Shown: one piece after another, positions 12,516 through 60,410 of the stretch
Numbering within the stretch: the stretch's first letter is position 1
Layout: each line of letters starts with the position of its first letter
Assembly (NCBI GenBank): GCA_963422645.2
Contig: CAXXVO010000004.1
Location: 416,001-480,000 of the forward strand
DNA from: Alphaproteobacteria bacterium
GTDB taxonomy: Bacteria; Pseudomonadota; Alphaproteobacteria; UBA828
DNA: 64,000 nt
Direction: 5' to 3'
The notes under the pieces: generated by a model
Database searches by the model: none
What the model saw: only the letters and a program-made list of their open reading frames with translations
What the model was told of the DNA's origin: nothing
Program-made: the position numbers and the translations under genes

Positions 12516-12586
12516 GTTCGGGCCGTGGAGACGCTATCTGCTTGATGCCTAGCTTTGGCGTGCCCTGGATGGCGTTGGCTGGGATT

Positions 12587-12760
12587 CTAGCGGTTTAGGG
12601 TGCGCTGCCAATCCCTTCTGAGGGGCCGGAGCCAGACGTCCTTGCAGGGTTTGTTTTGGAGCTTGCCGCGGTCGTAGCGTCCGCCCGACCCGTATCCAGC
12701 CTGATGCCCGGTAGACGGCTCCGGTGTAGCGCGGGGTCTCGACAAAGGTCTCCACGAACG
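12587..12760 (-). pseudogene. 3' fragment of a DUF4338 (DruA-like) gene, downstream of the LSR insertion
   Basis: TFVETPRYTGAVYRASGWIRVG, then a frameshifted GRYDR..KPCKDVWLRPLRRDWQRTLNR*; continues the PVLIE end of the fragment at 15578. Confidence 0.8.
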
Positions 12761-13207
12761 TCACAGACTACTATCTTGCAGGCTTCCGAGGCTCCTGAGC
12801 CCGTTCGCATTCGACGCTACAAGCATCCTTTCGACGGTGAGGCGATCGAGATTCTCGATCGGCGCAAAGGAGGTTACGGGGGCCGGACTCTGAAGGTTCG
12901 GATGCCGGACGGCAGCTGTTGTTGGATACCAGCGGCATGGACGAGCCTTGGAGCCCGTCCCGAGGATGCACCACGCCTGATCGGAGAGTTGTCTGATTTC
13001 CTCACCCTCCTTAATCTTCTGAATGACCTTGATGAGAGGGAACTCAGGCGCGATGGATGCGGAGCAGGAGTTGGCGCTGATCGCGCTGATGGAGTGGGAG
13101 GAGCGCCGGGACCGGTGGCTGGCGTTTCCGGCTCCGGACCGGGATCGCGTCGTGCAGGGTCTGGCCGATCTGATGGTTCGGATTGCGGATCGGGAGGCGG
13201 CCGATGA
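12761..13207 (+). CDS. DUF5372/Y4bD-like accessory ORF body with no start codon at its 5' end in the integrated state
   Basis: VRIRRYKHPFDGEAIE...PDGSCCWIPAAWTS...DFLTLLNLL resembles the HP..G / DG..IP..WT pattern; no in-frame ATG precedes the HP..G motif; TGA overlaps the recombinase ATG (ATGA). Confidence 0.6.
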   Translation, partial: SQTTILQASEAPEPVRIRRYKHPFDGEAIEILDRRKGGYGGRTLKVRMPDGSCCWIPAAWTSLGARPEDAPRLIGELSDFLTLLNLLNDLDERELRRDGCGAGVGADRADGVGGAPGPVAGVSGSGPGSRRAGSGRSDGSDCGSGGGR

Positions 13208-13244
13208 CGGTCGATCCGTCGAAGATCACCCAGCGTCATCTTGA
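13053..13244 (+). CDS. Small hypothetical protein upstream of the recombinase (63 aa)
   Basis: MDAEQELALIALMEWEERRDRWLAFPAPDRDRVVQGLADLMVRIA; helical; present in both element copies; overlaps the DUF5372-like frame. Confidence 0.45.
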   Translation: MDAEQELALIALMEWEERRDRWLAFPAPDRDRVVQGLADLMVRIADREAADDGRSVEDHPASS

Positions 13245-15386
13245 GCGTCTTGCAGTTGTCTACGTTCGCCAGTCGACACCCTTGCAAGTGAACGCGCACC
13301 AGGAATCGCAGCTGCGCCAATACGCGCTTGGCGAGCGTGCCCGGGAGATTGGCTGGCCGGCCGAGCGGATACGGACGATCGACGCCGATCTTGGCGAGAG
13401 CGCAAGCGAGAAGGCGCGCGGCGAGCGTGGCGGCTTTCGGGAGATGTGCGACCTGATCGCCCGGGACCATGTCGGGGGCATCTTCGGGATTGAGGTTTCG
13501 CGGCTCGCCAGGAACACGATGGAATGGTTTCAGCTTCTCGATCTATGTCGCAGGCACGACACGGTTCTGGTTGAGGACTGCCACATCTACTGCCCGAGCC
13601 GGGACGACGACTCCCTTGTCCTGGGGATCAAGGGAACCGTGAGCGCCGCTGAGCTGTCTCTTATTCGCGCCCGGATGGAGGGCGGAAAGCGGAACAAGGC
13701 GCTTCGTGGCGAGTTGTACTCGCGCGTTCCGATCGGATTTGTGCGGGATGGCTCGACTTTGCGGAAGGATCCGGATGCCCGGGTTCAGGCGGCGATTGCA
13801 ACGGTCTTTGCGCGTTTTCGGCAAGCCGGTTCGGCCCGCCAGGCGACGATGCTGCTGCGTGAGGCGGGCGAGGATGTTCCCTCTCGCCGGCACCCGGGGG
13901 CAGCATTGGAATGGGGCCCGGCGCGCTATGAACGGGTGTACCGCATCCTCACCAACCCGGCGATGGGCGGCGCCTATGCCTACGGCTTCAAACGCGGCGT
14001 TGGTCACGGTGCGCCGCTGCGGCCGGTCCAGGAGCGCTGGGATATTCTTCAGCCGGAGAAGCATGAGGGATATGTCAGTTGGGCAGAATGGCTTGAAGTA
14101 CAGGAGCAGCTGGCCCGCAACCACATGGCTCCGGACGGAGCCCGCGGCGCGGCGCGGGAAGGGTCGGCTCTGCTCCAGGGTCTCGCGGTCTGCGGCGGCT
14201 GCGGATTGCCGATGACCGTCTACTACAGCAAGACGGGCTGGGGGTATGAGTGCCGCAAGCGCGATGCTGCGCGCCGGCGCGGCGGTTGTTGGTCGACAGG
14301 CGGCAAGCGCGTTGATGCGGAAGTTGCCCGTCTGTTTCTCGATGCGGTCACGCCGGCGGGGGTGGAGGCGGCCCGGCAGGCGGCTTGTGATGTTGCTGAA
14401 CGCGGCCTGCGCGCGTTGCGCCGTTGGGAGCTGGATCTTGAGCACTGCCGGTACGAGGCGCGGCTTGCCGAGCGGCGCTACAAGCAGGTCGATCCCGACA
14501 ACCGTCTGATTGCGGCAACGCTGGAGCGCGAGTGGGAGAAGGCGCTTCGCGCCGAGAAGGCTGCACAGGAAGCGCTTGAGGCGGCACGGGCGCGTCAGCC
14601 CGCGGCCCCTGCCCCGGCGCGGTTTTCGAGGGTCTCGGCGCGCGCCTGTCGCAGGTCTGGGGGGCGTCGTCGACGACCATGCGCGAGCGCAAGCGCCTGC
14701 TCGCCTGCCTCCTCGACGAGGTGACGATCGAGCTTGCGCGACAGGAGCGTGAGATCATGGCAACATTGCGCTGGCGTGGCGGGCAGATCGACGAGATCAC
14801 TTTGCCGATGCTCGCGGGCTCTCCGACACCCCGGCGCGATGAGCGCAGCACGGTCGAGCTCGTGCGCAAGCTGTCATGCTTTTACAACGACCGGGAGACC
14901 GCGAAGGTTCTCACCCGCCAGGGACGGCGCACAGCACGGGGTCTGGATTTCACGGCCGAGCTTGTTGGCAGCCTGCGTCGCCGCCATGGCATTGCGCCCT
15001 ACCAGCCCGACGGGGACGAGCCGGTGCTCATGGGCGTTGCCGATGTGGCGAAGGAGATCGGAGTCTCGGATGACACCATCTATCGCTGGATCCGCGAGGG
15101 GCTGGTTCCGGTTGCCCAGCCCGATATCGAAGGTGCTCCTCTTCGGATCCGGATGACCCCGACCTTGCGCGAGCGCTTTCGTGAGGCGCCTCCGGAGGGG
15201 TTTGTTCCCCTCGCTGTGGCAATGGATCGTCTGGGTGTCACGCGGCAGACGGTCTGGGAACGGATCAAGGCGGGCAGGCTGGACAGCTGCCATGTGACCC
15301 GCGGCAAGACGCGCGGACTGTATGTGCGTTTGCCGGTCGAGGACGAACTGCCGCTGCTGCGCGGGCTCAACGGTGATGGGGGGTGA
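13204..15386 (+). pseudogene. Large serine recombinase (~726 aa if repaired) with 2-bp frameshift near 14618
   Basis: YVRQST catalytic Ser, EVSRLARN, recombinase domain, zinc ribbon CGGCG..YEC..C, coiled coil VDPDNRL, two C-terminal HTHs; reads GGCGCGGTTT where copy 2 reads GGCGGTTT. Confidence 0.88.
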
Positions 15387-15577
15387 CCATGCCCGGACCG
15401 TCAGGCAAAACGCCCGATGCAGATCCGCACCTCCAACGTGCGATACTGGAAAATCACGTCCGGCACGATGTAAAGGTCGCCGCGGCGGCAACAACGGAAT
15501 CCAAACCGCCTTTTCTATCAATGCGGTAGAAACGCCCGCCCACCTGCACAACGGAGAAGCATTATGAAGCCTTCATC

Positions 15578-16023
15578 TCGATGAGCACCGGGGTGATGTT
15601 GTAGCGCTCGGTCCAGTCCCCGGGCAGGCGGCAGCGGACGATGGCGAGGATGTGTGAGCCGAGGTTGGGGATCTCGATCCAGGGCAGGATCAGGAACCGC
15701 GGGTTGTCGACCACCAGGGGGAGGTTCTTCTCGCGCTTCTCGGGCGTCCATCCAATGAACCTGTAGCGCGGTGCAAGCCTCCAGGCGGCGGTGGAGAAGC
15801 CGAGCATGGTCAGCGGCCAGCCGTTTCGGTCGTAGACGGCGTAGCGCATCTGGGCGCCGACCAGGGTCTTGAAGCCGAGATAGTGGTAGCGGGCGACGAA
15901 CTCGTTCCACAGCCTGCCGTCGCGGGTCTCGCGCACGACGGGGCGCATCTCCAGCGGGCGGACCTCGGCGAGGGTGGTCGGGGCCGGGAACAACGGCGGT
16001 CTCGTCTTCTCAGAGAGCGCCAA
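15578..16023 (-). pseudogene. DUF4338 (DruA-like) gene fragment A, interrupted after PVLIE
   Basis: WNEFVARYHYLG..LVGAQMRY..LGFSTAAW..FIGW..RFLILPW..NLGSHIL..DW..RY..PVLIE. Confidence 0.85.
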
Positions 16024-16140
16024 GGCTGAGGTGGCCCGGGAAAATCGGACAGGTCGCTAAGTGTCTGGCCTGGAATGAATTGATTGATTTCAGTGTGTTG
16101 TGATTCACTGTTTGTGTCCAAGCAATCAGCGAGGCACGAC

Positions 16141-16674
16141 ATGTGGACTGAAATCACTCGCCTGAAGTATGAGCGCAAGGGGTTGCGTTATGGAAGCGAC
16201 CTGACGGATGCAGAGTGGGCCGTTCTCAAGCCCTTGCTGCCCCCGGCCCGAGTTCTGGGGCGCCCGCGGACGACGGACCTGCGCGAGGTCGTGAATGCGA
16301 TCCTGTATGTGCTGCGCAGCGTTTGTCCGTGGCGACTGCTGCCGAAGCACTTTCCGCCGCGTTCGACGGTGCAGCGCTATTTCTACGCTTGGCGCGATGA
16401 CGGGCTCTGGCAACGGATCAACCGCACCCTGCTGACGGCGACACGCGTGGCCGAGGGCCGACAGGCCGGCATCATCGACAGCCAATCGGTCAAGACCACC
16501 GAAAGCGGCGGCCCACGGGGCTTCGACGCGGGCAAGAAGGTCAAGGGCCGCAAGCGCCACATCCTGACCGACACCGGCGGCCTGCTGGTCACCGCCCGGG
16601 TCCATGCCGCCGATATCCAGGACGGCGACGGTGCTCCGGCCGTGCTTGCCGGCGTCTGCGACGGCTTCCCCCGG
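16141..16674 (+). pseudogene. IS5-family transposase, 3' truncated
   Basis: RYGSDLTDAEW, PWRLLPKHFPPRSTVQRYF, IIDSQSVKT, DAGKKVKGRKRH..DTGG; ends at an IS21-like terminus before the remaining catalytic residues. Confidence 0.88.
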
Positions 16675-16708
16675 TGTTGATCGGCGTGGAATATTGACCC
16701 CCTATTGG
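16675..16708 (+). mobile_element. Isolated IS21-like terminus
   Basis: TGTTGATCGGCGTGGAATATTGACCCCCTATTGG resembles the IS21 left end at 20288 (TGTTAAGCGTGGAAAAGTGACCCCCTATTGG). Confidence 0.65.
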
Positions 16709-17422
16709 ACCGGGCCCGCCGACCTGTGCGGGCCCCCAAGAACGCCCACGAACGCGTTCAGCCCGGCGACGTCATGCCCGCCGGCGAGCGCCCGGTCTGC
16801 AACGCCTCCGCAATGTTCCAGGAGGCCCCCCAGGTCCCTCCAGCCCGCCCCGGCCACTATCCGCTCGACATGGCAATCCCGCGCGCCTTCCAGCGCGCCC
16901 TCGTGGCCCTCGCCAACATCTCCGCCTCGATCGCCAACGTCGCGGAGTACACCGTCGCCTTCGATCCCGCCATCGCCGCAGACAACATGCGCCGCGACGC
17001 CGCGGCCGGCCTCGAGAAAGCCGCCGCGCGCTACGACAACCGTACCTCCTGACCGTCGGAGCCATCCATGCACCTGACCGACATCCACATCGACGAAATC
17101 GTCAAGATCGACAATCTCCCATGCAACGCCGTCGGACGCGCCACCTTCTCCAACGCACGCCAGTACCGCCAGCCGAATTCTTCCGGCAGCCCAACGCCAC
17201 AAACGGGCACTGACATGCTGCCGGCTGTTGGAGATCCAGTTCCTGCGCAGGAAGTACGTCAGGGACAACCGCATCAAGCTACGGGACAGCAATACCGGGG
17301 GCCGGATCGGCCCGCTTAAGCCCGACACTCGTGCGGTTCTCGACGGCTTTCGCCGCCAAAAGTACAAGCCTCCGTCCCCTAGCGTTCCAAGGCAATGTGA
17401 AATCGCCTCGCGCGGTCCCTGA
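16705..17422 (+). other. Unassigned ORF remnants (hypothetical, probably degraded)
   Basis: Short ORFs 16705-17052, 17068-17319 and 17228-17422 with no recognisable motif. Confidence 0.25.
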
Positions 17423-20287
17423 ACGCTTCCTCTCCACCTTCCAGGATGTCGCACACGACCTTGCGGATTTCCGCCTCGTCCAGGCCGCCGCTCCTGTACG
17501 TGATGGCCGGAAGACCCTCCGCCGACTGAGGGCCGACATGTGCGACAATAATCTGGTCCGCATCGGTGTTGACCACAAGGTTCGCGTTATGCGTAACAAT
17601 GATGACCTGCCGCTTCTTCTTGGCCTCCTCGAACAACGGCACCAGCTCGTCGAAAATGGACTTCGGATCGAGATTCTCTTCGGGTTGGTCGATAATCAAC
17701 GGTCGGTCATCGGCATCGTCGAGCGCAAGGTAGAGAAGCACCAGAACTATTCCCCGCGTGCCAGGTGACAGTTTTTGTATCTCGATTCCATCGTACTTGA
17801 TGCCATACTTGAGGGAAATGTGGCTTGTACTGTACAGCCATTGCGCGAAACGCCTCGACCAGGGTCGATATTTCAACCGGTCTGTACGCGGGTACGGGGC
17901 CTTTTCGAGAAGCGCCTCCTGATGCTTCTCCTGAAACGCATTCATGGCCTTGGAAACCGCAGCAGAATCACCCTCCCGCCAAGCGTCCCTCAGCATCCGG
18001 TTCGCTTCCTTCTCAAGTGAGCCTATGCCCTTGAACGGGCCTCCCCTGAGGTCGAACAGCTCATCTTCACCCTGCTTTGCCCACGTACCCACGTCGGCCA
18101 CCCTGGAGACAGAGAACGAGAGCTTCCCCAGCGTACCGCCGGCTTCCCGCAGGCGCCGGATCAGCGGACCGTACAACTCGTTGAGCACGCGCTCTTCCGC
18201 AAGCAGGGCATCGAAGACGCGAACGTAACCGTCCGCCCGCTCCGCAACGAGGCTCCTCGCCCTGTCATGCGCCCTCTTGCAATCTGCGAGCCTTTCTTTC
18301 AGTCCGGCAAGCTCATTTCCTTCTTCGGCGATCCGTTTGGAGACGGCAGCAACCTTGCGCGCGCTTTCCCTGTCCGCTGCGACCAGTTTTTCCATCCTCT
18401 CGATCTCTGCTTCGAGGACGCCGAGCGGGGTCCTCGCAAGATTGGCACCTTTGGGAAGGAACGTCCCGCTGGCATCCACTGCAACAGAAGGCTTCTCCCC
18501 TTTCCATGCCTTCGTGCTCTTCTCCACTTCCTCGGACTTCGCCGCTACGACCCCATCGACATCACCCACGTATTCGAGAAGAAAACGCCCCCACTCGCCC
18601 TCATCGAGAGAAAGATTCCTATAGTTCTCCCTCATGCCCCGCAGCATCTCGGGTGCCCGATTCTGTCTCAGGTCCCTGATTTCGTTCCTGACCCCGACGA
18701 TAGATGCCCTTCGATTGCCGAGCTTCCTTAGGTGGCCGCGTACCCGTTCGGCAGCGGCGATCAGTTCCCGGAGCCGCTCGCCCGTCTTCTTCCCATCTTT
18801 GGGCAACAAGGCCGTGCGATCCTTCTCGTAGCGCGCAATCAGCTTCTCTTTCGCGGCGATCTTCGCCTCCAGCGGTTTGACCTCACGCGTCTTCTCCATC
18901 TCGATGCCGATCTGGTCAGAAATGTTCGCCAGCGCCACCTCTTCCCGGACCCGCGCATCGCGATGGCCTCCCGCCCGCAGTTCAAGGAGCTCGCCGAAGT
19001 CGACCGCGCCGTCGCGTTCGAGTGACGGGTGCGCTTCGAAGATAACCCGCTCGATTTCCGCGATTAGTGTGGGCATGCCCTCTATGGAGCAGAGATCCTC
19101 CACGAATTGCTGCGACAGATACCTAGCACGGGGATAGGCGTCCGCTGAACTATCCACGGGTGCGTCGAGCGGCTGCGCTTGCGAAAGCTCGCCACTCGAC
19201 CATTTCACAACAACACTTGATTCCGACAGATGTTCCCTCGCCCGCGCAAGGAAGGACGGATTCTCCTCCGACTCCATGTACGAGCTGCAACCAGCCGCGA
19301 TCATGTCCACCAGCGCAGTCTTGCCCGATCCCCGCCCACCAATGACCGCCGTCAAGCCCGCATTCAGCTCCACAACGGGTGTCATGACCCACGACGCGTT
19401 TTCGACACGCACCTCGTCGATGATCTGGGAACCCGCCGACCATGACGGCGGGGCCGAACCGACGTACGCACGTTCCGGCACGCGACACGCGTGGCGGAAC
19501 GTATCGAAGGACGCTCGCCCCTTTATCCAGCAATACCGGTCTTCCGCGGGCTTGGCGACGCGCTCCAGACCATGCGCATCGCTGCCCCAAAGACACGGCT
19601 TCGGGCCGCGATATCTCTCCTGAAGTTCGGCCACACTCGCCGCCCCGCTCCCAAGCCAGAAATCCCTCTGCCTCAAACTCGAGGCAAAGATGGCGTGCGC
19701 GGCCTTTTCGATTTCTTCTCGCAGTGTCGTATCGGCCGCATCCCTCACGCCCGAAGTGCCATCCGCGCTTCCGGCGACCGCGATAATGATGTTTTCCTGG
19801 GCCCAGTCGATGCTGCGGTACATGTCGAGCAGATTGTCAAGCGATACCTTGAACTGCGTGACGCCGTGTTTCAGCGCAGCTTCTTCGCTGATATCGCCAC
19901 CGCGCGCGCGCCTCCCCAGCCGCGCCAGCTCGGAGGGTGTACATGCGAACTTGTCGTCAAAAGCGGAGAACCAGAGCCGACCCAGAAATCGGTTCAATTC
20001 GTCCACGTGATTCGGGTCCTCCGGACTGACAAGGAGGTGAATGTTGACAAAATTTCCCTTTACGGTCCCAGTGTTGAGTCGCAGCTCAATATTGGGAAAG
20101 AGCAGGTCGCATTCTTTCAGCCGACCCTTTGCTTTCTCCTCACACATGCGCTCGTAGGATCTCGTGATACAATAATCCGTAATCCCGATCGCCTGCAGCA
20201 CAGGCGACGCCGCTTCGACGGCATCGAGGTACAATTTCCAGCCATTTTCCTTGGGGAAGTTGTCCCCCAACACCGTCCCTGGCGTGT
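17379..20287 (-). pseudogene. PHP-domain/SMC-like ATPase fusion (Ppl/TrlF-like, putative defence protein), 5' end removed by IS21
   Basis: (H)TPGT, GITDY, NIELR, GSDAH PHP motifs; Walker A GGRGSGKT; long coiled coil; LSPGTRG, IIDQPEENLD, VTHN; lower GC than core genes. Confidence 0.8.
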
Positions 20288-20403
20288 TGTTAAGCGTGGA
20301 AAAGTGACCCCCTATTGGGGGTGATCGGCGTCCAAAATTGACCCCCTTGGATTTGTGTCCATGAACACACCTCGTCGTTTGGACGGACGGGGTGGTGGGG
20401 GAG

Positions 20404-21918
20404 ATGCTGGTTGTGGAAACGATCGCGAAGATCCGTCGGGATCATCTGGTGAAGGGCGTTCCGATCAAGAAGCTCGCCCGGGATTTGAGGGTTTCCAAGA
20501 ACACGATACGCAAGGTGGTGCGGGGCGATGCGACCTCGCACAGCTACGAGCGCAAGATCCAGCCGATGCCGAAGCTTGGGCTGTGGGTGGAGGAGCTTGA
20601 GCGCCAGCTGAAGGCCAACGAGAAGAAGGCACGCAAGGATCGGCTGTCTCTTCTGCGGATTCATGAAGACCTTGTGTCGCTGGGCTACAAGGGCGGCTAT
20701 GACGCGGTTCGCCGCTATGCCAGGGCCTGGCGGCGCCGGTGGCGGCTGTTGTCGCCGGCGCAGGCCTATGTGCCGCTGATCTTCGATCCCGGCGAGGCCT
20801 ACCAGTTCGACTGGAGCCACGAGTACGCGCGTCTGTCGGGCGCGACGACCAGGGTGAAGGCGGCGCACATGCGGCTGTGCCACAGCCGGATGTATCTGGT
20901 CCAGATCTTTCCCCGCGAGAGCCAGGAGATGGTCTTCGAGGCGCACGAGCGTGCCTTCCGCTTCTTCGGCGGGGTCTGCCGGCGGGGCATCTACGACAAC
21001 ATGAAGACGGCGGTGAGCACGATCTTCGTGGGCAAGAAGCGGGACTACAACCGCCGCTTCCAGGAGCTGTGCTCGCACCATCTGGTGGAGCCTGTGGCGT
21101 GCACGCCAGGGGCTGGCTGGGAGAAGGGGCAGGTCGAGAAGCAGGTGGGTGACCTTCGCGGCCGCCTGTTCGTGCCCATCCCGCGGGGCCGCTCCTACGC
21201 CGAGATCAACGAGTGGCTGATGGATCGGTGCATCGAGGACGCCAAGAAGCATCCGCATCCGACAATCCCGGGCAAGACGGTGTGGCAGGTGTTCGAGGAG
21301 GAGCAGCCCTTCCTGATGGCGTATCGCGGCCCCTTCGACGGCTTCCATGCCAGCGAGGTGTCGGTCTCGAAGACCTGTCTGGTGCGCTTCGACAACAACC
21401 AGTACAGCGTCGCGGCCCGCGCCGTCGGCCGGCCGGTGGACGTGCGGGCCTATGCCGATCGGATCGTCATCCGCCAGGACGGCGAGACCGTTGCCGAGCA
21501 CCCCCGCAGCTTCGGGCGCGGCCGGTTCGTCTACGATCCGTGGCATTACGTGCCGATCCTGACGCGGAAGCCCGGCGCGCTACGCAATGGCGCGCCCTTC
21601 AAGGACTGGCAGTTGCCCAACGCGCTCGGCCGCCTGCGAACCCGGCTCGCGGGCCACGACGACGGCGACCGGCAGTTCGTCAAGGTGCTCGCGGCGGTGC
21701 TGGAGGACGGACTGGAGGCGGTTGAGGCGGCCTGTGCCGAGACGCTCGACTGCGGTGCCTGCAGCGCCGACGTGGTGCTCAACATCCTCGCCCGGCAGCG
21801 CCAGCCGGCACCGCCGGCAATCATCCCGACGCCCGAGGGCCTGCAGCTTCGCCACAAGCCGGTAGCCGACTGTCAGCGCTACGACAGCCTGAGGGAGGCC
21901 GGTCATGGAGCGTCATGA
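20404..21918 (+). CDS. istA: IS21 transposase IstA
   Basis: N-terminal [38 protein letters not shown]. Confidence 0.93.
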
Positions 21919-22633
21919 TGTGCTGGAGATGATGACCCAGCTGAAGCTCGCAGGTATGCGCGCCGCTTACGACGACATCCTTGCCGACGGGCTCAAGCGC
22001 CGCCATCCGGTGCAACAGATCATCGGTACGCTGCTGCAGGTCGAGATCGCCGACAAGAGGGCCCGCTCGATCAAGTACCAGATGGCCTCCGCCAAGCTGC
22101 CGACGGTCAAGGAGCTGGCCGACTTCGACTTCGCCGCCTCGCCGGTCAACGAGCCCCTGATCCAGGAGCTCGCCGGCGGCGGCTTCCTCGAGGGCAAACG
22201 CAACATCGTGCTGGTCGGCGGCACCGGTACCGGCAAGACCCATCTCGCCGTCGCCATCGCGCGGTCCTGCATCCGCAAGGGCGCGCGCGGCCGGTGCTAC
22301 AACGTCGTCGACCTGGTCAACCTCCTCGAGGCCGAGCTTCGCGCCGGACGCCAGGGCCGCACTGCAGACCAGCTCGTCCGCCGCGACTTCGTCATCCTCG
22401 ACGAGCTCGGCTACCTGCCCTTCGCCCAGGCCGGTGGGCAGCTGCTCTTCCATCTGATGAGCCGGCTCTACGAGCGCACCTCGATCGTCATCACCACAAA
22501 CCTCGCCTTCGGCGAATGGCCATCCGTCTTCGGCGACCCCAAGATGACCACAGCGCTGCTCGATCGCCTCACCCATCATTGCGAGATCATCGAGACCGGC
22601 AACGAGAGCTGGCGCTTCAAGAACCGCTCCTGA
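21905..22633 (+). CDS. istB: IS21 helper ATPase IstB
   Basis: [43 protein letters not shown]. Confidence 0.95.
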
Positions 22634-22835
22634 CCCGCCGCCGGCCTCCCTTGCGGCCCGGTTGCCCCGGTGGGCCAACAGGGACCCCCCACGCGGCTTC
22701 GCTCCGCGTAGCGCAGGGCGCCACACGAAGCCGCGCGGGTCCCCCCTATTGGCTACCGGGACAACCTCCGCCGTGCCACTCAGGGGGGTCAATTTTGCAC
22801 GCCGATCGGGGGTCAGTATTGAAAGCCGATTGACA

Positions 22836-25323
22836 GGCTGTTCTGGGCAGCGTGCCGGGAACTCCTTGAATTCTGATACATTTCGGTTGTTTCAGGCGGT
22901 TTTTCGCTGGGTGTCGCGCCCGAGGTCTGATAGTATAATTTGATACCAATTGCACGGTCTCAACCATGCCCAGTACCCTCCCAATGTGCCCTCCAGAGGC
23001 GGTCTCGATCGGCAACAGCTGCTTCGCCGTCCTGATCTCGGACGACACCTTCACCTACTTTTCCAACCTCATTCCCTTTGACAGCCACGCCGCCGATGAC
23101 CGCACGGCCATGCTCTTGCGGATCGGCCGCCTCGCGGCGATCAGCGCGGTCTCGCCGCAGGAACTGGCTGACGCTTTCGCTGTCTCGCGCGCGACGGTGC
23201 AGCGCGCACGACGGCGCTACCTGGCCGAGGGCGAAGCGGGGTTCATGAAGCCCCGGCGCGGTCGCGGGCCGTCGGTGTTCACTCCGGAGTTGGCGGAGAA
23301 GGCGACGGCGTTGCTGGCATCGGGCCTGAGCGGCTCTGCGGCGGCCCGGGTTCTCGGCGTGTCAGCGCCATCGGTCAACAAGTGGCGCCGTCAGGGACTG
23401 ATCGGCAACACGGAGGCGGATGGGGAGCCCGGACGCTCAGCGCTGGCTGCGCCGCCTGACGCGGGTGCGGCTCCTGAAGGCCGTGTCGATGAAGAGAGTA
23501 CCGGTGCCCCGGGGCCGGAGACGGCGCCGGGGCTGGAAGCGCAGCCGCAAACGGATCGCAGCGCGCGCGATCGGCGGGACCGGCAGGCGCCGATGGGGCG
23601 TGCGACTTGCGATGTTCCGGCTCGGGTTCTGGCCAGTTGTGGACAGGCGGGGCCGGTCGAACCGCAGTTCGCCGCCGCCGCCCGCGGTGTCCGCTTCGGC
23701 GGCGTGCTCGCCGCCCTGCCGGCCCTGCTGAAGGAAGGTCTTCTCTCCGAGACCGGTCTCCTGCCATTGCTGCCGAAGGGCTATTACGGCTTGCCTACGA
23801 TCCTGCTCTTCCTGGCCTTCATGACCTTGGCGCGGGTGCGCAACCCCGAGAGCCTGCGCTACCAGGCGCCGGGCGAATGGGGCGCCATTCTCGGCCTCGA
23901 TCGCTGCCCCGAGGTCAAGACGCTGCGCCGCAAGATCGCTCTCATCGCCGACGACGAGGCCGGCGTGCGGGCGTGGCAGCTCGCCCTTGCCAGGCGCTGG
24001 CAAGGCCGACGAGCCGGAGCTCTGGGCGACGCTGGCCATCGACGGGCACGTCAAGGTCTACTCCGGCCGCAAGGGGCGCTTGCCCAAGCACTTCGTCTCG
24101 CGCGAGAAGCTGTGCCTGCCGGCGAGCGCCAGCTACTGGATCAACGCTCTGGGCGGCAAGCCGCTGCTCTGTCTGCACAAGCCGCTGGACCCGAAGATGG
24201 TCGCGGCCATCGAAGCCGACGTGGTGCCGGCGCTGCAGGAGCTTGGGATCGTTGGCGCCGGGGCGCCGGACCTGACCGCCGAGCATCCCGGCCAGCCGGC
24301 GCTCACCCTGGTCTTCGACCGCGAGGGCTGGAGCCCGGATCTGTTCCGCCGGCTGGCGAGGCGCGGCGTCGCCTGCCTGACCTGGCACAAGAACTTCAGG
24401 GGCGAGGACTGGCCGGCCGAGGACTTCGGCGCGATGACCGTTCCCATTCACGGACCGGCGGCGGACGGCAGCGCCACCATGCGGCTGGCTGAGAAGCCGG
24501 TGACGTTGCCGAACGGCTTCAGGGTGCGCCAGATCCGCCGCCTGCTCGACAACGGCCGTCAGGTGCCGCTGATCACCACCGATCCGCACAAGCCGATGGC
24601 TGAGGTTGCGGGCGCCATGTTCTCGCGCTGGTCGCAGGAGAACTTCTTCAAGTACATGCGTGACGAGTTCAATCTCGACGCCCTGCCGACCCACGAGCTC
24701 GAGCCTCTCGATCCCGCCGCCATGGTCGTCAACCCGCTGCGGCGGGCCTATGACAAGGCAATCCATCGCCTCGACCGCCAGCTTGGCCGCCTGCGCAACC
24801 GCATCGCCGACACGGCCCGGAAGAAGCAGCCGACGGCGGAACTCAGGAGGGAAGTCAGGGACCTCCAGGATGTCCGCGACATCGTCAGGGCCAGCCGCAG
24901 GGAGACGCCCAAGCACTGCCGGGCCGGCGACCTCGACGAAGCCGAGCAGCTCGATGCCTTGCCCGCGCGCGAGCGCCTCCTCCTCGACGTCATCCGGATG
25001 ATCGCCTACCGCGCCGAAACCCGCATGATGCTTCCCGTCATGCAGGCGCAGGGCCACAAGCCCCATCCCCGGAAACTGCTTCAAGCGCTGCTCACCGCCG
25101 ATGCCGACATCCTGCCGGATCCTGGCAATGGCCTCCTGCGGGTCCACATTCTTGGCCTCGCAAACGACGCCTGCGACCGTTGGATCGATGCGGTTCTGAG
25201 CGACCTGAACGCCACCGAAACGGTCTTCCCCGGCACCCGTCTGCGCATAGTCTACGACATCGACGGGGCCTCGGAATCCGCGCGGCTCGTGTCACCTAAA
25301 ATCAGCAGAGGTCAGGAAGTCTG
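22836..25323 (+). mobile_element. Unclassified DDE-type IS, copy 1 (first 24 bp lost at IS21 junction)
   Basis: Matches 57028-59515 (offset 34192); right TIR GAGGTCAGGAAGTCTG followed by AACCT. Confidence 0.88.
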
Positions 25324-25324
25324 A
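22966..25324 (+). pseudogene. Putative transposase split by a +1 frameshift near 24002
   Basis: ORF1: HTHs and PGEWGAILGLDRCPEVKTLR; ORF2: IDGHVKVY, VFDREGWS, RWSQENFFK (DDE-like triad). Confidence 0.75.
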
Positions 25325-25761
25325 ACCTCGCGCGCCGCCTTCAAAAGCATAAGGAGGGCTGCCTGCGCTTCCTCACCGACCTGCGCACGCCGTTCACGAA
25401 TAACGAGGCGGAGCGTGACATCCGTATGAACAAAGTGCATGAGAAGATCTCAGGCGGCTTCCGCTCCCTGCAAGGCGCCTGCAACTTCGCCGGAATGCGC
25501 AGCGTCATCGTCACCGCTCGAAAGCAAGGCTGGAACATCCTGCAAATCCTGGCGCACCCGGAACCGATGCAGCTGATCCCTATACTGCGCTCCTGAACTT
25601 CTCCGGCTCATCCTGAGTATCGCTGTCCTCTCATCTTGTTCGCGACGCGGCGTTCATCATCCTCTCGCGCTCAAGAGAGTAGGCACCCCCGCGGCGTGGG
25701 GGCGTTGACGCAAAAGGAACTGGCTTGTTCCATAAGAGAGAGGGGGTACCTGGGCAGTTAC
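25324..25761 (+). mobile_element. IS66-family remnant: transposase 3' end (stop 25596) and right TIR
   Basis: NLARRL..FLTDL..PFTNNEAERDIRM.K..KISGGFRS..TARKQGWN; ends ACCTGGGCAGTTAC. Confidence 0.85.
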
Positions 25762-26110
25762 CCTTAATCTTCTGAATGACCTTGATGAGAGGGAACTCAG
25801 GCGCGATGGATGCGGAGCAGGAGTTGGCGCTGATCGCGCTGATGGAGTGGGAGGAGCGCCGGGACCGGTGGCTGGCGTTTCCGGCTCCGGACCGGGATCG
25901 CGTCGTGCAGGGTCTGGCCGATCTGATGGTTCGGATTGCGGATCGGGAGGCGGCCGATGACGGTCGATCCGTCGAAGATCACCCAGCGTCATCTTGAGCG
26001 TCTTGCAGTTGTCGTAACTGCCCAGGTCGTCTGATTTGTCATTTTGGGCCAGTGGATTGAGGCGTTTCTCGTTCGGAGTTGGTGGAAAGGGCTTGACGGG
26101 AATTTCGGGA

Positions 26111-27161
26111 ACCGCTTATGCACATGGCTCCGGTCGCGAGAGTTTGCCACCAGATGTTGAGGTTGAGGTTAGGGCGGGAGAACGGGTAGAATGTTGCCTA
26201 TACGTTCCTGCCGACGGAGCCACCACATGAAACAGGTCGCCGACAGCCTCCTCGCCTTCCAGCACATGTTCCCGGACGATGACGCCTGCGCCGCCTGGCT
26301 GATCGAAATGCGCTGGCCGGACGGCTTCGTCTGTCCCGCGTGCGGCCATGAAAAGGGATGGGCGCTGCGCAGAAAAGCACACACCTTCGAGTGCGCCGGC
26401 TGCCGCCGGCAGACCTCGGTGACGGCCGGGACGATCCTGCACGCCAGCAAGCTGCCGCTCACCGTCTGGTTCTGGGCCGCCTACCTGATGGCGACCCACT
26501 CCAACGGCATCTCTGCCCTGCAGCTCCAGAAACAGCTCGGTATCGGCTCTTACCGCAGCGCTTGGCTGCTCGCCCACAAGCTGCGCGCCAGCATGGTCGA
26601 CCCCGAGCGCAACCCGTTGTCGGGCCTGGTGGAAATCGACGAGGCCAGCCTTCCATTCCGGACCAAAGACGATCCTCCCACCGGAGGGCAAGGACGCAGC
26701 CACGACGGCAAGATGCTCATCGTCGGCGCCATCGAACTGGGGGATGGAACCATCCCGGGCCGCCTGCGGCTGGCCGAAATCTCCTCCTACGGCGCCGCCG
26801 ACCTCGGACACTTCGTCGAAACCGCCGCCGATCCCGACGCCATCGCGAAAACCGACGGCTGGTCCGGCTACGCTGCGGTCCCCGCCGATCGCCACAATGT
26901 CCATGTCGTCGGGAAGACCGCCGCTCACCTCGTCCTGCCGTGGATCCACCAAGTCTTCTCCAACCTCAAAGGATGGGCGCGAGGCGTCTACCACGGGCTG
27001 CGCCGCAAGCATCTGCAGGCCTATCTCGATGAGTTCGCCTTTCGCTTCAACCGCCGCAAAACCCGCCACGCTGCTTTCCGCTCGCTCTTCCGCATCGCCA
27101 CCAATGCAAAACCCCTTACCTACAGCATGTTGATCGAACCGGAGCCATGTGCATAAGCGGT
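26111..27161 (+). mobile_element. IS1595-family element (1051 bp) nested in the IS66 leader
   Basis: Perfect 24-bp TIR ACCGCTTATGCACATGGCTCCGGT; 8-bp TSD TTTCGGGA at 26103-26110 and 27162-27169. Confidence 0.93.
26227..27156 (+). CDS. IS1595-family transposase
   Basis: RWPDGFVCPACG zinc ribbon, VEIDEA, TDGWSGY, HLQAYLDEFAFRFNRR; stop lies inside the right TIR. Confidence 0.93.
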   Translation: MKQVADSLLAFQHMFPDDDACAAWLIEMRWPDGFVCPACGHEKGWALRRKAHTFECAGCRRQTSVTAGTILHASKLPLTVWFWAAYLMATHSNGISALQLQKQLGIGSYRSAWLLAHKLRASMVDPERNPLSGLVEIDEASLPFRTKDDPPTGGQGRSHDGKMLIVGAIELGDGTIPGRLRLAEISSYGAADLGHFVETAADPDAIAKTDGWSGYAAVPADRHNVHVVGKTAAHLVLPWIHQVFSNLKGWARGVYHGLRRKHLQAYLDEFAFRFNRRKTRHAAFRSLFRIATNAKPLTYSMLIEPEPCA

Positions 27162-27186
27162 TTTCGGGAAATGACTCAACAACGAC

Positions 27187-28693
27187 ATGAGCAATCCCGA
27201 GTCGCCGCGCGGCCCTTCGACGGGAGCAGCGCCCGAAACGCCCGCGCAGAAGATCGCCCGCCTGGAGGAGGAGAACGCCCGGCTTCGGGAGGAAAATGCC
27301 TGGCTTCGGCAGCAGAACGCGCGGCTGGAAGAGCAAGTCGCGCGTCTCGTCGAGCGCATCGAGGAGTTGGAGCGCCGTCTCGGCCTCAACAGCGGCAACA
27401 GCGGCAAGCCGCCTTCGAGCGATGGGCTGAGGAAGCCGAATTCGAAGCGGCGAACCCGAAGCCTGCGCGGCAAATCGGGCCGCAAGCCCGGTGGCCAGCC
27501 CGGCCACAAGGGCAAGACGCTGCGCCGCGCCGATCACCCGGATCGGGTGAAGGATCACGTCCCGGCTTCCTGCAAGGGATGCGGTTCGCCGCTTTCGGAC
27601 GCGGCCAGGGCGGGAACGCCCGTCGCCCGCCAGGTGTTCGATCTGCCCGAGCCGAGCCCCCTGGAGGTGACCGAGCACCGGGCGCATGCCAAGTGCTGCG
27701 GGCATTGCGGGACGGTGACCCGGGCGGCGTTCCCCGACGGGGTGTCGGCGCCGGTGCAGTACGGCCCGCGCATTGCCGGGGTGGCGGTCTACCTTCAGCA
27801 CGCTCACTTCCTGCCGGAGGATCGGCTGTCGCAGGTGATGGCCGAGCTCTTCGGCGCGCCGGTGACGGCTGCGACGTTGGCGACGATGAGCGAGAGGGCG
27901 GCCGAGCGGCTTGCGGGACGCGGCCTTGCACATACAGGACCTGGCGGCGGGCACGGCGCGGGTGAAACACATGGACGAGACCGGCTTGCGGATCGGCGGT
28001 CAGACGCAGTGGCTTCATGTGATCTGCACGCCGCTGCTGGCGGCGTACCGGGTCAGCGGCAAGCGCGGCGCCCTGCTCTCGGGTGTCTCCGGCATCGTCG
28101 TGCACGATCACTGGAAGCCGTACTTCGCGATGGAAGGGGTGGAGCACGGCCTGTGCAACGCCCATCACCTGCGGGAGTTGCAGGCGCTGGTGGACATCGA
28201 AGGGGAGGCTTGGGCCCGGCGGATGCAGCAGCTCCTGCGCCGAGCCAATCGCGCCGCCCGCATCGCGCTGGACAAGGATATCGCCGTTCCGGCGAGGCTT
28301 GTGGCGCTGATCGAGCGCCGATACGACGAGATCATCGCCGATGCGCTGGCCTTTCACGAGAGCCAACCACCGTTCTCGCCTGGCAAGAGGAAGAAGCGCC
28401 GGAAGCGAAGGATCGGTCACAATCTGGCCTTGAGGCTGCGCGACCACAAATGCGCGGTGCTCCGGTTCCTGATCGACCTCGAGGTCGGGTTCACGAACAA
28501 CGAGGCCGAGCGCGACCTTCGGATGATGAAGCTGCGCCAGAAGATCTCCGGGGGCTTCCGGTCCGCGCAGGGGGCCGAGAACTTCGCCATCCTGCGCAGC
28601 GTCATCACCACCGCCAGAAAGCAGGGCTGGAATATCATCGAAGCCCTGACCAGCCCATCGGATCGGCTCATCGCCACCGTCAAGTGCGCGTAA
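27187..28693 (+). pseudogene. IS66 transposase with frameshift near 27910
   Basis: Coiled coil, NSGNSGKPPSSDG, GGQPGHKG, zinc finger; second frame HMDETG, HDHW, CNAHHLREL, FTNNEAERDLR. Confidence 0.88.
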
Positions 28694-31284
28694 GCTCACC
28701 TGGCACGGGTTCTCCAACAGCGGAGCCATTCTCATAAACGATCATGGTCGACGCCGTGCTGGACCACCCCATAGAATGAAAATCGGTGCCCGTCGCGCGG
28801 GCGGACTTCGGGCCACATCGGGGTAGCTTACCGGTCGCAGTCCGCAAGAGGGGCATCGTGAGCTGTGAAACCCGGCGACCACAGAGGAGCACACGGGCGT
28901 CGCGTGGGTAGCGTTGTGCCGAATCCCAGAGAATTTTCACAGCAAGAACCTGGGCAGTTACCAGTTGTCTACGTTCGCCAGTCGACACCCTTGCAAGTGA
29001 ACGCGCACCAGGAATCGCAGCTGCGCCAATACGCGCTTGGCGAGCGTGCCCGGGAGATTGGCTGGCCGGCCGAGCGGATACGGACGATCGACGCCGATCT
29101 TGGCGAGAGCGCAAGCGAGAAGGCGCGCGGCGAGCGTGGCGGCTTTCGGGAGATGTGCGACCTGATCGCCCGGGACCATGTCGGGGGCATCTTCGGGATT
29201 GAGGTTTCGCGGCTCGCCAGGAACACGATGGAATGGTTTCAGCTTCTCGATCTATGTCGCAGGCACGACACGGTTCTGGTTGAGGACTGCCACATCTACT
29301 GCCCGAGCCGGGACGACGACTCCCTTGTCCTGGGGATCAAGGGAACCGTGAGCGCCGCTGAGCTGTCTTTTATTCGCGCCCGGATGGAGGGCGGAAAGCG
29401 GAACAAGGCGCTTCGTGGCGAGTTGTACTCGCGCGTTCCGATCGGATTTGTGCGGGATGGCTCGACTTTGCGGAAGGATCCGGATGCCCGGGTTCAGGCG
29501 GCGATTGCAACGGTCTTTGCGCGTTTTCGGCAAGCCGGTTCGGCCCGCCAGGCGACGATGCTGCTGCGTGAGGCGGGCGAGGATGTTCCCTCTCGCCGGC
29601 ACCCGGGGGCAGCATTGGAATGGGGCCCGGCGCGCTATGAACGGGTGTACCGCATCCTCACCAACCCGGCGATGGGCGGCGCCTATGCCTACGGCTTCAA
29701 ACGCGGCGTTGGTCACGGTGCGCCGCTGCGGCCGGTCCAGGAGCGCTGGGATATTCTTCAGCCGGAGAAGCATGAGGGATATGTCAGTTGGGCAGAATGG
29801 CTTGAAGTACAGGAGCAGCTGGCCCGCAACCACATGGCTCCGGACGGAGCCCGCGGCGCGGCGCGGGAAGGGTCGGCTCTGCTCCAGGGTCTCGCGGTCT
29901 GCGGCGGCTGCGGATTGCCGATGACCGTCTACTACAGCAAGACGGGCTGGGGGTATGAGTGCCGCAAGCGCGATGCTGCGCGCCGGCGCGGCGGTTGTTG
30001 GTCGACAGGCGGCAAGCGCGTTGATGCGGAAGTTGCCCGTCTGTTTCTCGATGCGGTCACGCCGGCGGGGGTGGAGGCGGCCCGGCAGGCGGCTTGTGAT
30101 GTTGCTGAACGCGGCCTGCGCGCGTTGCGCCGTTGGGAGCTGGATCTTGAGCACTGCCGGTACGAGGCGCGGCTTGCCGAGCGGCGCTACAAGCAGGTCG
30201 ATCCCGACAACCGTCTGATTGCGGCAACGCTGGAGCGCGAGTGGGAGAAGGCGCTTCGCGCCGAGAAGGCTGCACAGGAAGCGCTTGAGGCGGCACGGGC
30301 GCGTCAGCCCGCGGCCCCTGCCCCGGCGGTTTTCGAGGGTCTCGGCGCGCGCCTGTCGCAGGTCTGGGGGGCGTCGTCGACGACCATGCGCGAGCGCAAG
30401 CGCCTGCTCGCCTGCCTCCTCGACGAGGTGACGATCGAGCTTGCGCGACAGGAGCGTGAGATCATGGCAACATTGCGCTGGCGTGGCGGGCAGATCGACG
30501 AGATCACTTTGCCGATGCTCGCGGGCTCTCCGACACCCCGGCGCGATGAGCGCAGCACGGTCGAGCTCGTGCGCAAGCTGTCATGCTTTTACAACGACCG
30601 GGAGACCGCGAAGGTTCTCACCCGCCAGGGACGGCGCACAGCACGGGGTCTGGATTTCACGGCCGAGCTTGTTGGCAGCCTGCGTCGCCGCCATGGCATT
30701 GCGCCCTACCAGCCCGACGGGGACGAGCCGGTGCTCATGGGCGTTGCCGATGTGGCGAAGGAGATCGGAGTCTCGGATGACACCATCTATCGCTGGATCC
30801 GCGAGGGGCTGGTTCCGGTTGCCCAGCCCGATATCGAAGGTGCTCCTCTTCGGATCCGGATGACCCCGACCTTGCGCGAGCGCTTTCGTGAGGCGCCTCC
30901 GGAGGGGTTTGTTCCCCTCGCTGTGGCAATGGATCGTCTGGGTGTCACGCGGCAGACGGTCTGGGAACGGATCAAGGCGGGCAGGCTGGACAGCTGCCAT
31001 GTGACCCGCGGCAAGACGCGCGGACTGTATGTGCGTTTGCCGGTCGAGGACGAACTGCCGCTGCTGCGCGGGCTCAACGGTGATGGGGGGTGACCATGCC
31101 CGGACCGTCAGGCAAAACGCCCGATGCAGATCCGCACCTCCAACGTGCGATACTGGAAAATCACGTCCGGCACGATGTAAAGGTCGCCGCGGCGGCAACA
31201 ACGGAATCCAAACCGCCTTTTCTATCAATGCGGTAGAAACGCCCGCCCACCTGCACAACGGAGAAGCATTATGAAGCCTTCATC

Positions 31285-31745
31285 TCGATGAGCACCGGGG
31301 TGATGTTGTAGCGCTCGGTCCAGTCGTCGGGCAGGCGGCGGCGGACGAGGGCGAGGATGTGCGAGCCCAGGTTGGGGATGGTGATCCAGGGCAGGATCAG
31401 GAACCTCGGATTGTCGACGACGAGCGGGAGGTTCTTCTCGCGCGATCGTGGCGTCCAGCCGATGAAGTTGTCGCGCGGAGCGAGCTTCCATGCGGCGGTT
31501 GAGAAGCCGAGCATGGCGATGGGCCAGCCGTTTCGGTCGTGGACGGCGTAGAGCATCTGGGCGCCGACGAGGGTCTTGTAACCGAGATAGTGGTAACGGG
31601 CGACGAACTCGTTCCACAACCTGCCCTCGCGGGTCTCGCGGACGACGGGGCGCAGGTCGATCGGGCGAACCTCGTCGAGGGTTGTCGGGGCCGGAAGCAG
31701 CGGCGGCTCGGTGTCCGGCCCGAAGACGACTGGCTTTGGCCGGTG
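31285..31745 (-). pseudogene. DUF4338 (DruA-like) gene fragment B, interrupted after PVLIE
   Basis: Diverged paralog of 15578-16023 ending at the identical junction. Confidence 0.85.
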
Positions 31746-33426: not shown

Positions 33427-33771
33427 CCAGTTGGCCGGAGATCTTGCCAAGCGATTCCAGCCCCGGTCTGGGCGGGTCCGGCCCTGCGACGGAGTGACGG
33501 ACGGGCATGGGCGGGCGTGCACGGGGCCCCGAAGCCCCAGACTCTTCCCAAAGAGGTCTGGATCATCCCGCCGGCCACAGCAACGACCCCACGGCCTGAT
33601 CACAAAATCCCAACCGTCGCTGTCTCAATGTCGTTGACAGGTTCCGACTTGCCGGCATCCATCACGACGTGAAGCGTGATGCCGATGGTGCGCCCGTCAC
33701 GGGCTGACGGAACATTTACCGAGCCGGAGCGACGCGCAGGTGGAAGCTTAACAACAGCCGGGGCTGCACGG

Positions 33772-36245: not shown

Positions 36246-36758
36246 GGCTGCACGGAGGACGGCACAGCATTTCGCATCTGATACGTCGCTTACGTCGCGA
36301 CGTTGGTCAGCGCGCAGATTGGACGCTGGTAAGCATCATAACCCTTTGAGTTTACTGAAGTTGATGGGGTCAAGGTTGAGCGCGGAACAACACCCAGACA
36401 GACAAGGGGCCATAGGTGGCGCATTTTTTTGCACCGCCGCGACCGGACCGCCCGGCCGCTCCGCGTGGTGCATTATTCCAACGCCGGTAACAGGCGCGGC
36501 GAGGAAAACCCGGCATCGGCTCGATCGGCACGACCAGGATACCGACGGGCGTGGTGTGGCGCGGGCTCTCTTGATTGAATGACATCGCCCTCGGTACAAC
36601 ACTGCAAATCGGCAATGTGGACACTTGAAAGGCCGCAGGTGCGAGGAAGGCGTCACCCAGTCTGGTCAACTAAAGCCTGGCTTGACAACGCCTCGCGCCG
36701 ACGTGCGACCGGCACCGAGCACAATCCGTACAACCACAAACGAATGTGGGACCCTACG

Positions 36759-59515: not shown

Positions 59516-59516
59516 A
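57158..59516 (+). pseudogene. Putative transposase with the same +1 frameshift (near 58194) as copy 1
   Basis: ORF translations identical to 22966-25324. Confidence 0.75.
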
Positions 59517-60410
59517 ACCTGTACTGGTATCCCACGTTCTACGAAGGGTTCGAGTGCTCGAAGAACGTCATATACACGGGCGCTGTTCCCAATCAGCAGC
59601 AAGAAAACTTCGTTCCGTGGATCACGAACCAGGGCTACAACAAGTTCTTCATTGTCGGGTCGAACTACATCTACCCGCGTGAGATGGCCAAGGTTTGCAA
59701 GATCCTGGTGGAGAGAGAGGGCGGCTCCTGGGTGGCTGACGAGTACCTGGAACTCGGTCACACAGAATGGGGTTCGATGGTCAACAAGATGAAGACCATG
59801 TGGGAAGCCGGCGAGTGCGACTGCGTCTACTCCAACGTGGTCGGCGATTCGATCGTCGCCTTTAGGCGTGAGTTCATCAACCAGGGCCTGAGCTACGACA
59901 AATTCCCCATCTTTGCCACCGTGTGCTCTGAAATCGAAGTGCAGGCGATGGGTGCCGATTATGCTGCGGGCAGTGTCACGTCCTTCCCCTATTTCCAGTC
60001 GGTGAGCAACCCGGTGAACGAGAAGTTTGTGGAAGACGTGAAGGGGGCGATGGGTGCCGATACCGTCACCTATCACGCCATGGAATGCGCCTATTTCCAG
60101 GTATTCCTGTGGGCGCAATCGGTGGAGAAGGCAGGCGAGGTCGATCCTCTTTCGGTTCGCGAAGCCTCCAAGGGACAAGAGGTCGATGCACCGGAAGGGC
60201 GCGTGAGAATCGAGCCCGAGAACCTGCATTGCTGGCTGACGCCGCGCATCGGCGTGTGGGGCTCGGACGGGCAGGCCGAGATCGTCGACGAGTACGCGGA
60301 GCCGCTGATACCGCTCCCCTACTCGGCGTACGGCGAGGCGCCCGACAATCTCTTCTGCACGCAAGCGGGCCTGGATTCCAGCAAGCTCAAGACCTGAGCG
60401 CTGACGCTAA

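Follow-up and report, generated by a model that had tools for sequence, protein, structure and literature searches.

The window analysed here, 64,000 nucleotides (nt) of an alphaproteobacterial genome (G000:C5:416001-480000) with a G+C content of 66.8%, carries two copies of an insertion sequence (IS)-sized element that encodes a large serine recombinase (LSR). Both copies interrupt genes for proteins with the DruA domain (Pfam PF14236, the former DUF4338), and a further gene with this domain, encoding the transposase of an IS4-family IS, is uninterrupted (Table 1). Within the window the element is visible as a repeat, 28962-31710 being a second copy of 13253-16004 with 98% identity, and 25762-26013 being exactly equal to 13009-13260 (100%). 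An earlier note on this sequence had placed the two copies at the same position of two diverged DUF4338 genes, and this is borne out: both right junctions lie at one TCTC (15576-15579 and 31283-31286) and read ...GAAGCCTTCA-TCTC-GATGAGCACCGG.

In a genome-wide BLAST search, three uninterrupted genes (C10:190099-190709, C13:256513-255898 and C16:209176-209795) were found in which window position 12752 abuts position 15576, with a 4-nt overlap; copy 1 of the element therefore has the limits given in Table 1, with TCTC bounding it at both sides. The right-hand cut that the earlier note had set after 15577 and 31284 marks a real site, but it falls inside the 4-nt core. Its reconstruction of the other target half, CGTTCGTGG, was mistaken, as these are the element's own left-end bases, present in every copy whatever the target, and the true left junction is 12752/12753. 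The unoccupied site that it reported in the intact DUF4338-IS4 gene is likewise real, although the match of 21 out of 26 nt quoted for it derives from the wrong reconstruction.

Table 1. Positions in the window of the LSR element copies and of their occupied and unoccupied DruA-domain target genes
Feature	Position	Strand	Remarks
3' (C-terminal) fragment of type-A1 DruA gene, left flank of copy 1	12576..12752	-	Ends with TCTC core 12749-12752
Element copy 1	12753..15575	+	2823 bp (2821 plus 2-bp insertion); 99.93% identical to reference, single 2-bp gap; defective
orfA, DUF5372-like small protein	12776..13207	+	TTG start is a candidate only
LSR N-terminal part, copy 1	13205..14724	+	Resolvase, Recombinase, probable zinc ribbon; out of frame past ~14617
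LSR C-terminal part, HTH_17/excisionase-type	14679..15386	+	Cut off by the copy-1 frameshift; HTH_17 E = 4.8e-11
5'-side fragment of type-A1 DruA gene, right flank of copy 1	15576..16004	-	Starts with TCTC
Element copy 2, element nt 257-508	25762..26013	+	100% identical to reference
Nested IS insertions splitting copy 2	26014..28961		1054-bp IS 26109-27162 and IS66-family IS ~27162-28961
Element copy 2, element nt 501-2821	28962..31282	+	One single-nucleotide polymorphism, C908T
5'-side fragment of second type-A DruA gene (A4), right flank of copy 2	31283..31710	-	Residues 116-271 (tblastn)
Unoccupied type-B IS	33765..36252	+	26-nt inverted repeats; transposase gene 33840-36155 with DruA and DDE_Tnp_1
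GAGA core of unoccupied attB	34656..34659	+	Within PVLV-ETFV-D, transposase codon ~273

The gene fragment to the left of copy 1 aligns with C10:190099-190285, C13:256513-256322 and C16:209176-209371, all of which run straight into right-flank sequence, and matches residues 268-318 of a DruA paralogue in tblastn. The fragment to the right is, from exactly 15576, 88-90% identical to the uninterrupted paralogues and matches residues 123-271; translated along the gene strand, it gives ...PVLIE and then four element-encoded codons and a stop. The two copies differ by exactly one single-nucleotide polymorphism (C908T, in copy 2) and one 2-bp insertion (GC, in copy 1, at ~14617 or element nt ~1864), the same differences that the earlier note had listed. 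The GC insertion splits the LSR of copy 1 into open reading frames (ORFs) of 513 and 235 amino acids (aa), and is absent from the element contigs of all four public sequencing runs compared. The left edge of copy 2 is cut by a multicopy IS that ends at 25761 (the repeat 25308-25761 has hundreds of genomic matches), and element nt 1-256, hence also the left junction, are missing, as had been recognised before. Within copy 2, the nested insertions (one of them an IS66-family IS with DUF6444, zf-IS66 and DDE_Tnp_IS66 domains) have element nt 501-508 doubled at their two edges and deprive the LSR gene of its first ~16 codons, start codon included, the sequence before 28962 not belonging to the element. 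The A1 and A4 right flanks are identical over 43 nt, with the first T of TCTC as nt 1, or over 41 nt when counted from the cut assumed in the earlier note; they then differ, as stated there, at 14 of the next 100 positions (57 of 429 overall), A4 being ~13% diverged from A1 beyond the 43 nt.

Across the genome there are 11 copies of the element plus one fragment, with mutual identities of 99.93-100%. The reference copy used for alignments (C10:178470-181290) is 2821 bp long and has only two conserved genes, orfA and the LSR gene. Five copies, all outside the window, are full-length, identical and fully intact (C5:335244, C6:283144, C6:345465, C10:178470 and C14:20648). The LSR ORF is open in six of the 11 copies; among the other five, two share one frameshift, two share a C1729A stop, and window copy 2 is truncated by IS insertion. 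The LSR has 726 aa and carries a Resolvase domain (PF00239, E = 2.4e-16, 60.6 bits against a cutoff of 23.3), after this catalytic domain a Recombinase domain (PF07508, E = 2.5e-10, 40.9 bits against 21.1), a probable zinc ribbon (Zn_ribbon_recom PF13408, E = 4.9e-5, at 24.0-24.9 bits just below the cutoff of 25.3, and precomputed for many LSR homologues), and a C-terminal excisionase-type helix-turn-helix (HTH_17, E = 5.3e-10). Y20, R22, Q23 and S24 of the catalytic region and C330, C333 and C362 of the zinc ribbon are invariant across 21 homologues, and C350 is nearly so. There are 4307 homologues, the best of which, of ~725-730 aa, have the same Pfam set and the same helix-turn-helix fusion; the fused form is the native form of the protein. 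The orfA product matches DUF5372 in Pfam (E = 0.0035), and in the atlas scores 0.92 with 30 of 30 matches to DUF5372, a domain of which we found no mention in the literature. The stop codon of orfA overlaps the LSR start codon (ATGA), and an orfA homologue lies directly upstream of the LSR gene in 46 of 80 related loci, drawn from GTDB representative genomes with LSRs 35-51% identical. As a side observation, one 1054-bp IS is present in three element copies (window 26109-27162, C8:601176-600122 and C5:30455-31508), each time within the first ~510 nt of the element, that is in the orfA region or the LSR start; breaks within these first ~510 nt affect five of the 11 copies.

Searching the whole genome with 25-nt element ends, allowing up to three mismatches, identified 10 left and 11 right junctions, all at one TCTC/GAGA core in DruA-domain genes. 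The earlier note had proposed such a search, under which copies at unrelated sites would have spoken against targeting; no such copy was found. Because all 21 junctions in the genome share one core of one motif, chance coincidence is excluded. On the strand of the interrupted gene, the site reads ...PV-L-(I/V)-E before the cut and T-F-V-(E/D)... after it, within the DruA domain (E = 1.4e-31 in the IS transposase, 2.9e-40 in a 329-aa type-A protein and 5.1e-37 in an ORF on C13), which is described as GNAT-like in passages of PMC10853773.

The target genes fall into two types. Type B is a 2477-bp IS4-family IS, with one fragment, and with six occupied and at least 13 empty copies at 99.6% identity or more. 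It has 26-nt terminal inverted repeats that are 81% complementary, and its 771-aa transposase (156 bits against a cutoff of 115 for the IS4 model NF033592) consists of a DruA domain at aa 122-306 and a DDE_Tnp_1 domain at aa 452-673. Type A is made up of DruA genes that stand alone or are fused differently, and that are mosaics of one another; five are occupied, namely A1 and A4 of the window, A3 (C8:746212) and two loci denoted X (C6:345465 and C8:601418), and three are uninterrupted. This makes 16 uninterrupted homologous sites, 13 of type B and three of type A; further unoccupied sites are those of a diverged paralogue (C3:34893, ...LAETFVD...) and a truncated site (C9:499949). The earlier note had called the target transposon-borne: it is indeed multicopy, and outside the window it is mainly the IS-borne form that is targeted, but the targets in the window are truncated standalone DruA paralogues. 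One uninterrupted type-A DruA domain (L001, C13:250325-260325) forms the C-terminus of a 1156-aa ORF, which is flanked by a TrwC-type relaxase/helicase and two tyrosine integrases and is thus situated on an integrative or conjugative element.

Types A and B are only 37% identical at the protein level, over 284 aa, with PVL-ETFV as the longest common block, and next to the core their common sequence extends for only ~11 nt leftwards and 4-7 nt rightwards. The exact register of insertion in A1, A3, A2/X and B, despite so little common sequence, therefore calls for sequence-specific recombination. While the element copies are almost identical, the flanking genes differ by 10-60% at the DNA level and fall into at least four classes (A1, A3, A2/X and the IS-type B, plus the A4 right flank), which differ right up to the core. 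The earlier note had specified that one flank common to all copies would make the flank part of the element, and the classes show otherwise. That the flank belongs to a larger repeat unit, or that collapsed or duplicated repeats produced an assembly artefact, is scarcely credible: several copies do have identical flanks over hundreds of bases (the type-B IS arms), and the genome is a bin of 23 contigs with 8.5% contamination, but empty copies of every flank class exist, homology stops where the IS does, each locus having its own surroundings, the classes diverge at the core itself, and element and flank sequences are both contained in four other public runs.

An empty site equals the left flank plus the right flank with a single core, without target duplication, so that excision would restore the target; the element ends overlap the target by 4 nt (TCTC) in type A and by 7 nt in the uninterrupted type-B IS. 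Insertion closes the upstream reading frame after four element-encoded codons, which in the IS is upstream of the DDE domain. This exact restoration of the ORF by excision at the 4-nt core, together with XisF being the best NCBIfam match of the LSR (68 bits), would suit a domesticated excision switch that restores the DruA or transposase frame, as in the fdxN element. Such a role is very improbable, given that the XisF score is far under the cutoff of 375, that 11 near-identical copies sit in diverged paralogues, many of them broken by an IS, a frameshift or a stop, and that the 16 uninterrupted targets complete the pattern of a spreading element. Separately, the left end of the element provides an in-frame GTG that opens a 503-aa ORF (MTFVE followed by TFVD...) over the whole DDE half of the transposase (L004:971-2482 on the minus strand, equal to C10:176970-178481); it is found at the equivalent place at every occupied type-B left junction, and the element-encoded TFVE echoes the target's own TFV(E/D) codons.

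Taken together, we consider it likely, with good confidence, that this IS-sized LSR element is a site-specific parasite that homes to DruA-domain genes, mostly the transposase genes of another element. The LSR would recombine the joined element ends (attP), presumably in a circular intermediate, with attB in the PV(L)(I/V)-E-T-F-V codons of DruA genes, the crossover probably taking place at one dinucleotide within the TCTC/GAGA core and leaving no target duplication. Since the motif is carried by a high-copy IS4-family IS and by standalone DruA paralogues, it would offer many targets harmless to the host, each insertion truncating the protein four codons past the motif and, in the IS, before the DDE domain. 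After integration, copies may swap sequence by homologous recombination or gene conversion, giving chimeric flanks; defective copies would persist or move in trans, and IS-borne copies may ride along when intact IS copies transpose the disabled IS. The independent insertions into a conserved motif that the earlier note proposed are thus supported genome-wide, by the common core of all junctions and at least four flank classes, and the idea of a multicopy target by the 16 empty sites, whereas the independence of the two window copies is not established.

Several observations, both in this genome and in its relatives, weigh against this reading, or against integration as the sole means of spread. 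Serine recombination is conservative and by itself does not raise copy number. The six composites of IS and element, of 5301 bp, are 99.94-99.98% identical, and two pairs of occupied IS have the same arm haplotypes, a pattern that either hitchhiking or gene conversion could produce. At C6:342645 and C8:597539 the right flank opens with ~52 nt of type B and continues as sequence 100% identical to A3; at C6 it runs on past A3 as sequence 100% identical to the C13 gene. In the same manner the A4 flank carries 43 nt of A1, switching at the same place as the other chimeras, which are all in register with the switch at a conserved stretch of ~15 nt. The 43-nt flank and the 52-nt type-B flanks on type-A genes are best read as gene-conversion tracts, so that the caveat of homologous recombination raised in the earlier note was justified, and homologous recombination has contributed by moving the element together with its flank.

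Carried further, these observations would mean that the recombinase integrated once or a few times, and that most copies stem from hitchhiking of the 5.3 kb composite, mobilised in trans, and from homing-like gene conversion. The IS keeps both inverted repeats, and most of the 13 copies with an uninterrupted site are full-length; chimeric flanks replace target sequence in register, and the DruA paralogues are mosaic. In addition, each of the defective lineages spans two target classes (the GC insertion in A1 and A3, the C1729A stop in X and B), which fits mobilisation in trans or conversion. We nevertheless think it unlikely that these processes explain most of the spread, as the similarity of A and B next to the core is too short for homology-driven copying, and the junctions are exact anyway. 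Moreover, the six occupied type-B IS represent at least four arm-haplotype combinations (positions 170, 1791/1794 and 1876), in common with different empty copies, and each of their right-arm haplotypes recurs among empty copies. The same target flank is also found in a relative: on a metagenome contig (L107), whose LSR is 74% identical over residues 6-203, the sequence opens with these 11 bases of the target, after which comes an element end that has clearly diverged. Part of the copy number probably goes back to passive transposition of the disabled IS and to gene conversion. Neither explains the jumps between target classes, for which site-specific integration is our preferred explanation.

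Also on the side of doubt, the attP junction has no match in the assembly; attP is weakly symmetric about the second TC, at 11 of 22 positions where the background is 6.1 +/- 2.2, and attB shows no symmetry. A joint of 12748 to 15576, with 26 nt on the shorter side at a likeness threshold of 90%, occurs in contigs of four public runs, and was not counted as excision as it may come from paralogous empty genes. On the supporting side, in one run (X1, from 2015) the element forms its own contig of 2836 nt, at a depth of 104 against ~9-59 for the flanking pieces and with two substitutions relative to the window, at 13477 and 14054; other isolates or runs under this organism label therefore also contain it in multiple copies.

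The specificity for DruA genes does not reach far among the relatives. In the 80 related loci, a hidden Markov model (HMM) of DruA built from three proteins of this genome found a DruA flank in none at E<=1e-3, and only noise at E<=10; a search with the 12-nt junction motif retrieved only the copies of this genome and L107. The best LSRs in the genomes of 60 relatives are 36-43% identical, and in three genomes of the same genus such relatives are multicopy, 3.0-3.4 kb long, and have unrelated flanks. Outside this genome, DruA specificity consequently rests on the 11 nt of contig L107. Homologues closer by LSR identity are P0003 (80%), P0004 (77%) and P0005 (65%). A comparison of L007 with L008 gave no element ends. 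Relatives on plasmids are at most 41% identical, and often there are several per replicon; one Mesorhizobium plasmid carries diverged paralogues rather than identical copies. In a sister species, a DruA-like ORF (L095:1-663, minus strand, HMM E = 2.2e-39) lies 39 nt from a 39%-identical LSR element (L095:702-3669), which is not inside the ORF, and the second LSR copy of that genome has no DruA neighbour. It looks as though the LSR family consists of IS-sized elements overall, with DruA specificity limited to a narrow clade.

The genome is extremely rich in IS. It holds several IS families of 1.4-2.6 kb, whose near-identical copies number from dozens to over 100 per family (for example C10:187592-189480, 191407-193957 and 194899-196282), and one 454-nt stretch of the window has 442 BLAST matches. 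The window itself contains a 2493-bp repeat that is 100% identical between 22836-25328 and 57028-59520, and a near-tandem 1706-bp repeat (60526-62231 and 62295-64000, spaced by 1769 nt and 100% identical). A 964-aa ORF (17379-20273, minus strand) with C-terminal matches to the AAA_21 and SMC_N ATPase domains lies between the two element copies.

If the element is a site-specific parasite of DruA genes, its 11 copies are explained by a recognition site that, though highly specific, recurs within a conserved motif of a multicopy transposase and gene family. It would then illustrate cleanly how, in nature, one mobile element can live off another through site-specific recombination, and how such insertion acts together with gene conversion, and possibly with hitchhiking, in a genome extremely rich in IS. 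The natural attB variants, occupied and unoccupied, across 37% protein identity are informative about the tolerance of the enzyme and useful for integrase engineering. The 4307 homologues with a conserved DUF5372-like partner also point to a large uncharacterised family of ~3-kb multicopy elements in many soil and rhizobial genomes. A bolder proposal, which we regard as possible but doubtful, is that this LSR clade is a dedicated hyperparasite of DruA-domain IS4 transposons, recognising the invariant ETFV codons in the GNAT-like domain at the N-terminus of the transposase, knocking out the transposase, and moving both by its own integration and by passive transposition of the IS, with the GTG-started 503-aa ORF perhaps giving a truncated transposase that acts as regulator or inhibitor. 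Were this true, the element would be a natural brake on IS expansion, and its enzyme a compact integrase whose defined attB leaves room for variation.

LSRs are usually described either as one-site integrases of phages and large integrative elements, or as low-specificity transposases. To the former belong phiC31, Bxb1 and TP901-1, serine integrases of phages and integrative elements, with which our LSR shares the order of Resolvase, Recombinase and, probably, zinc ribbon, insertion in a conserved coding motif, a short common core, and lack of target duplication. Unlike those systems, this element is cargo-free at 2.8 kb, has 11 copies in one genome, finds its attB in a multicopy IS and gene family, and has a fused C-terminal helix-turn-helix. 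Tn4451 and Tn5397 are elements of TnpX/TndX-type LSRs, and as in these, the LSR is the sole mobility enzyme of a transposon-like element found at several sites; however, multiplicity here stems from one specific repeated site rather than from relaxed specificity, as all 21 junctions are in one motif. According to passages of Durrant et al. 2022 (PMC10083194), which also set out the general properties of serine integrases, LSRs are divided into site-specific and multi-targeting enzymes, and the multi-targeting TnpX/TndX clade carries DUF4368. The Pfam scan gave no match to DUF4368 in our LSR.

XisF of the fdxN element (NF041201) is the top NCBIfam model for the catalytic half of the LSR and likewise belongs to a gene-interrupting element, but at 68 bits the LSR is a non-member, and the present element is multicopy and decaying rather than a single developmental element. 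With IS607 it shares the size of an IS and movement by a serine recombinase. IS607 transposases are small and have an N-terminal helix-turn-helix, whereas our LSR reaches only 22.7 bits against the cutoff of 110 for NF033518, through the helix-turn-helix alone. R2 retrotransposons (in ribosomal DNA), group II introns and IS110/IS1111 IS home to repeats or to other mobile elements, and resemble the present element in using a conserved site in multicopy, often selfish sequence as a source of harmless landing sites; they differ in relying on a reverse transcriptase and endonuclease, or on a DEDD transposase, in place of a serine recombinase. As for the targets, PF14236 is shared with DruA of Druantia, but the Druantia operon context was absent from the two loci inspected, where a TrwC relaxase, tyrosine integrases and IS genes are the neighbours; against the PADLOC DruA model, type A scores only 24.9 bits and the IS transposase has no match. 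Our literature search found no paper on homing of an LSR element to a gene for a transposase or a DUF4338 protein, although the supplementary target-gene Pfam lists of Durrant et al., which lay outside this search, could contain DUF4338. The chemistry of the element would be that of an ordinary serine integrase, and what is unusual is a cargo-free, multicopy lifestyle aimed at the transposase motif of another element.

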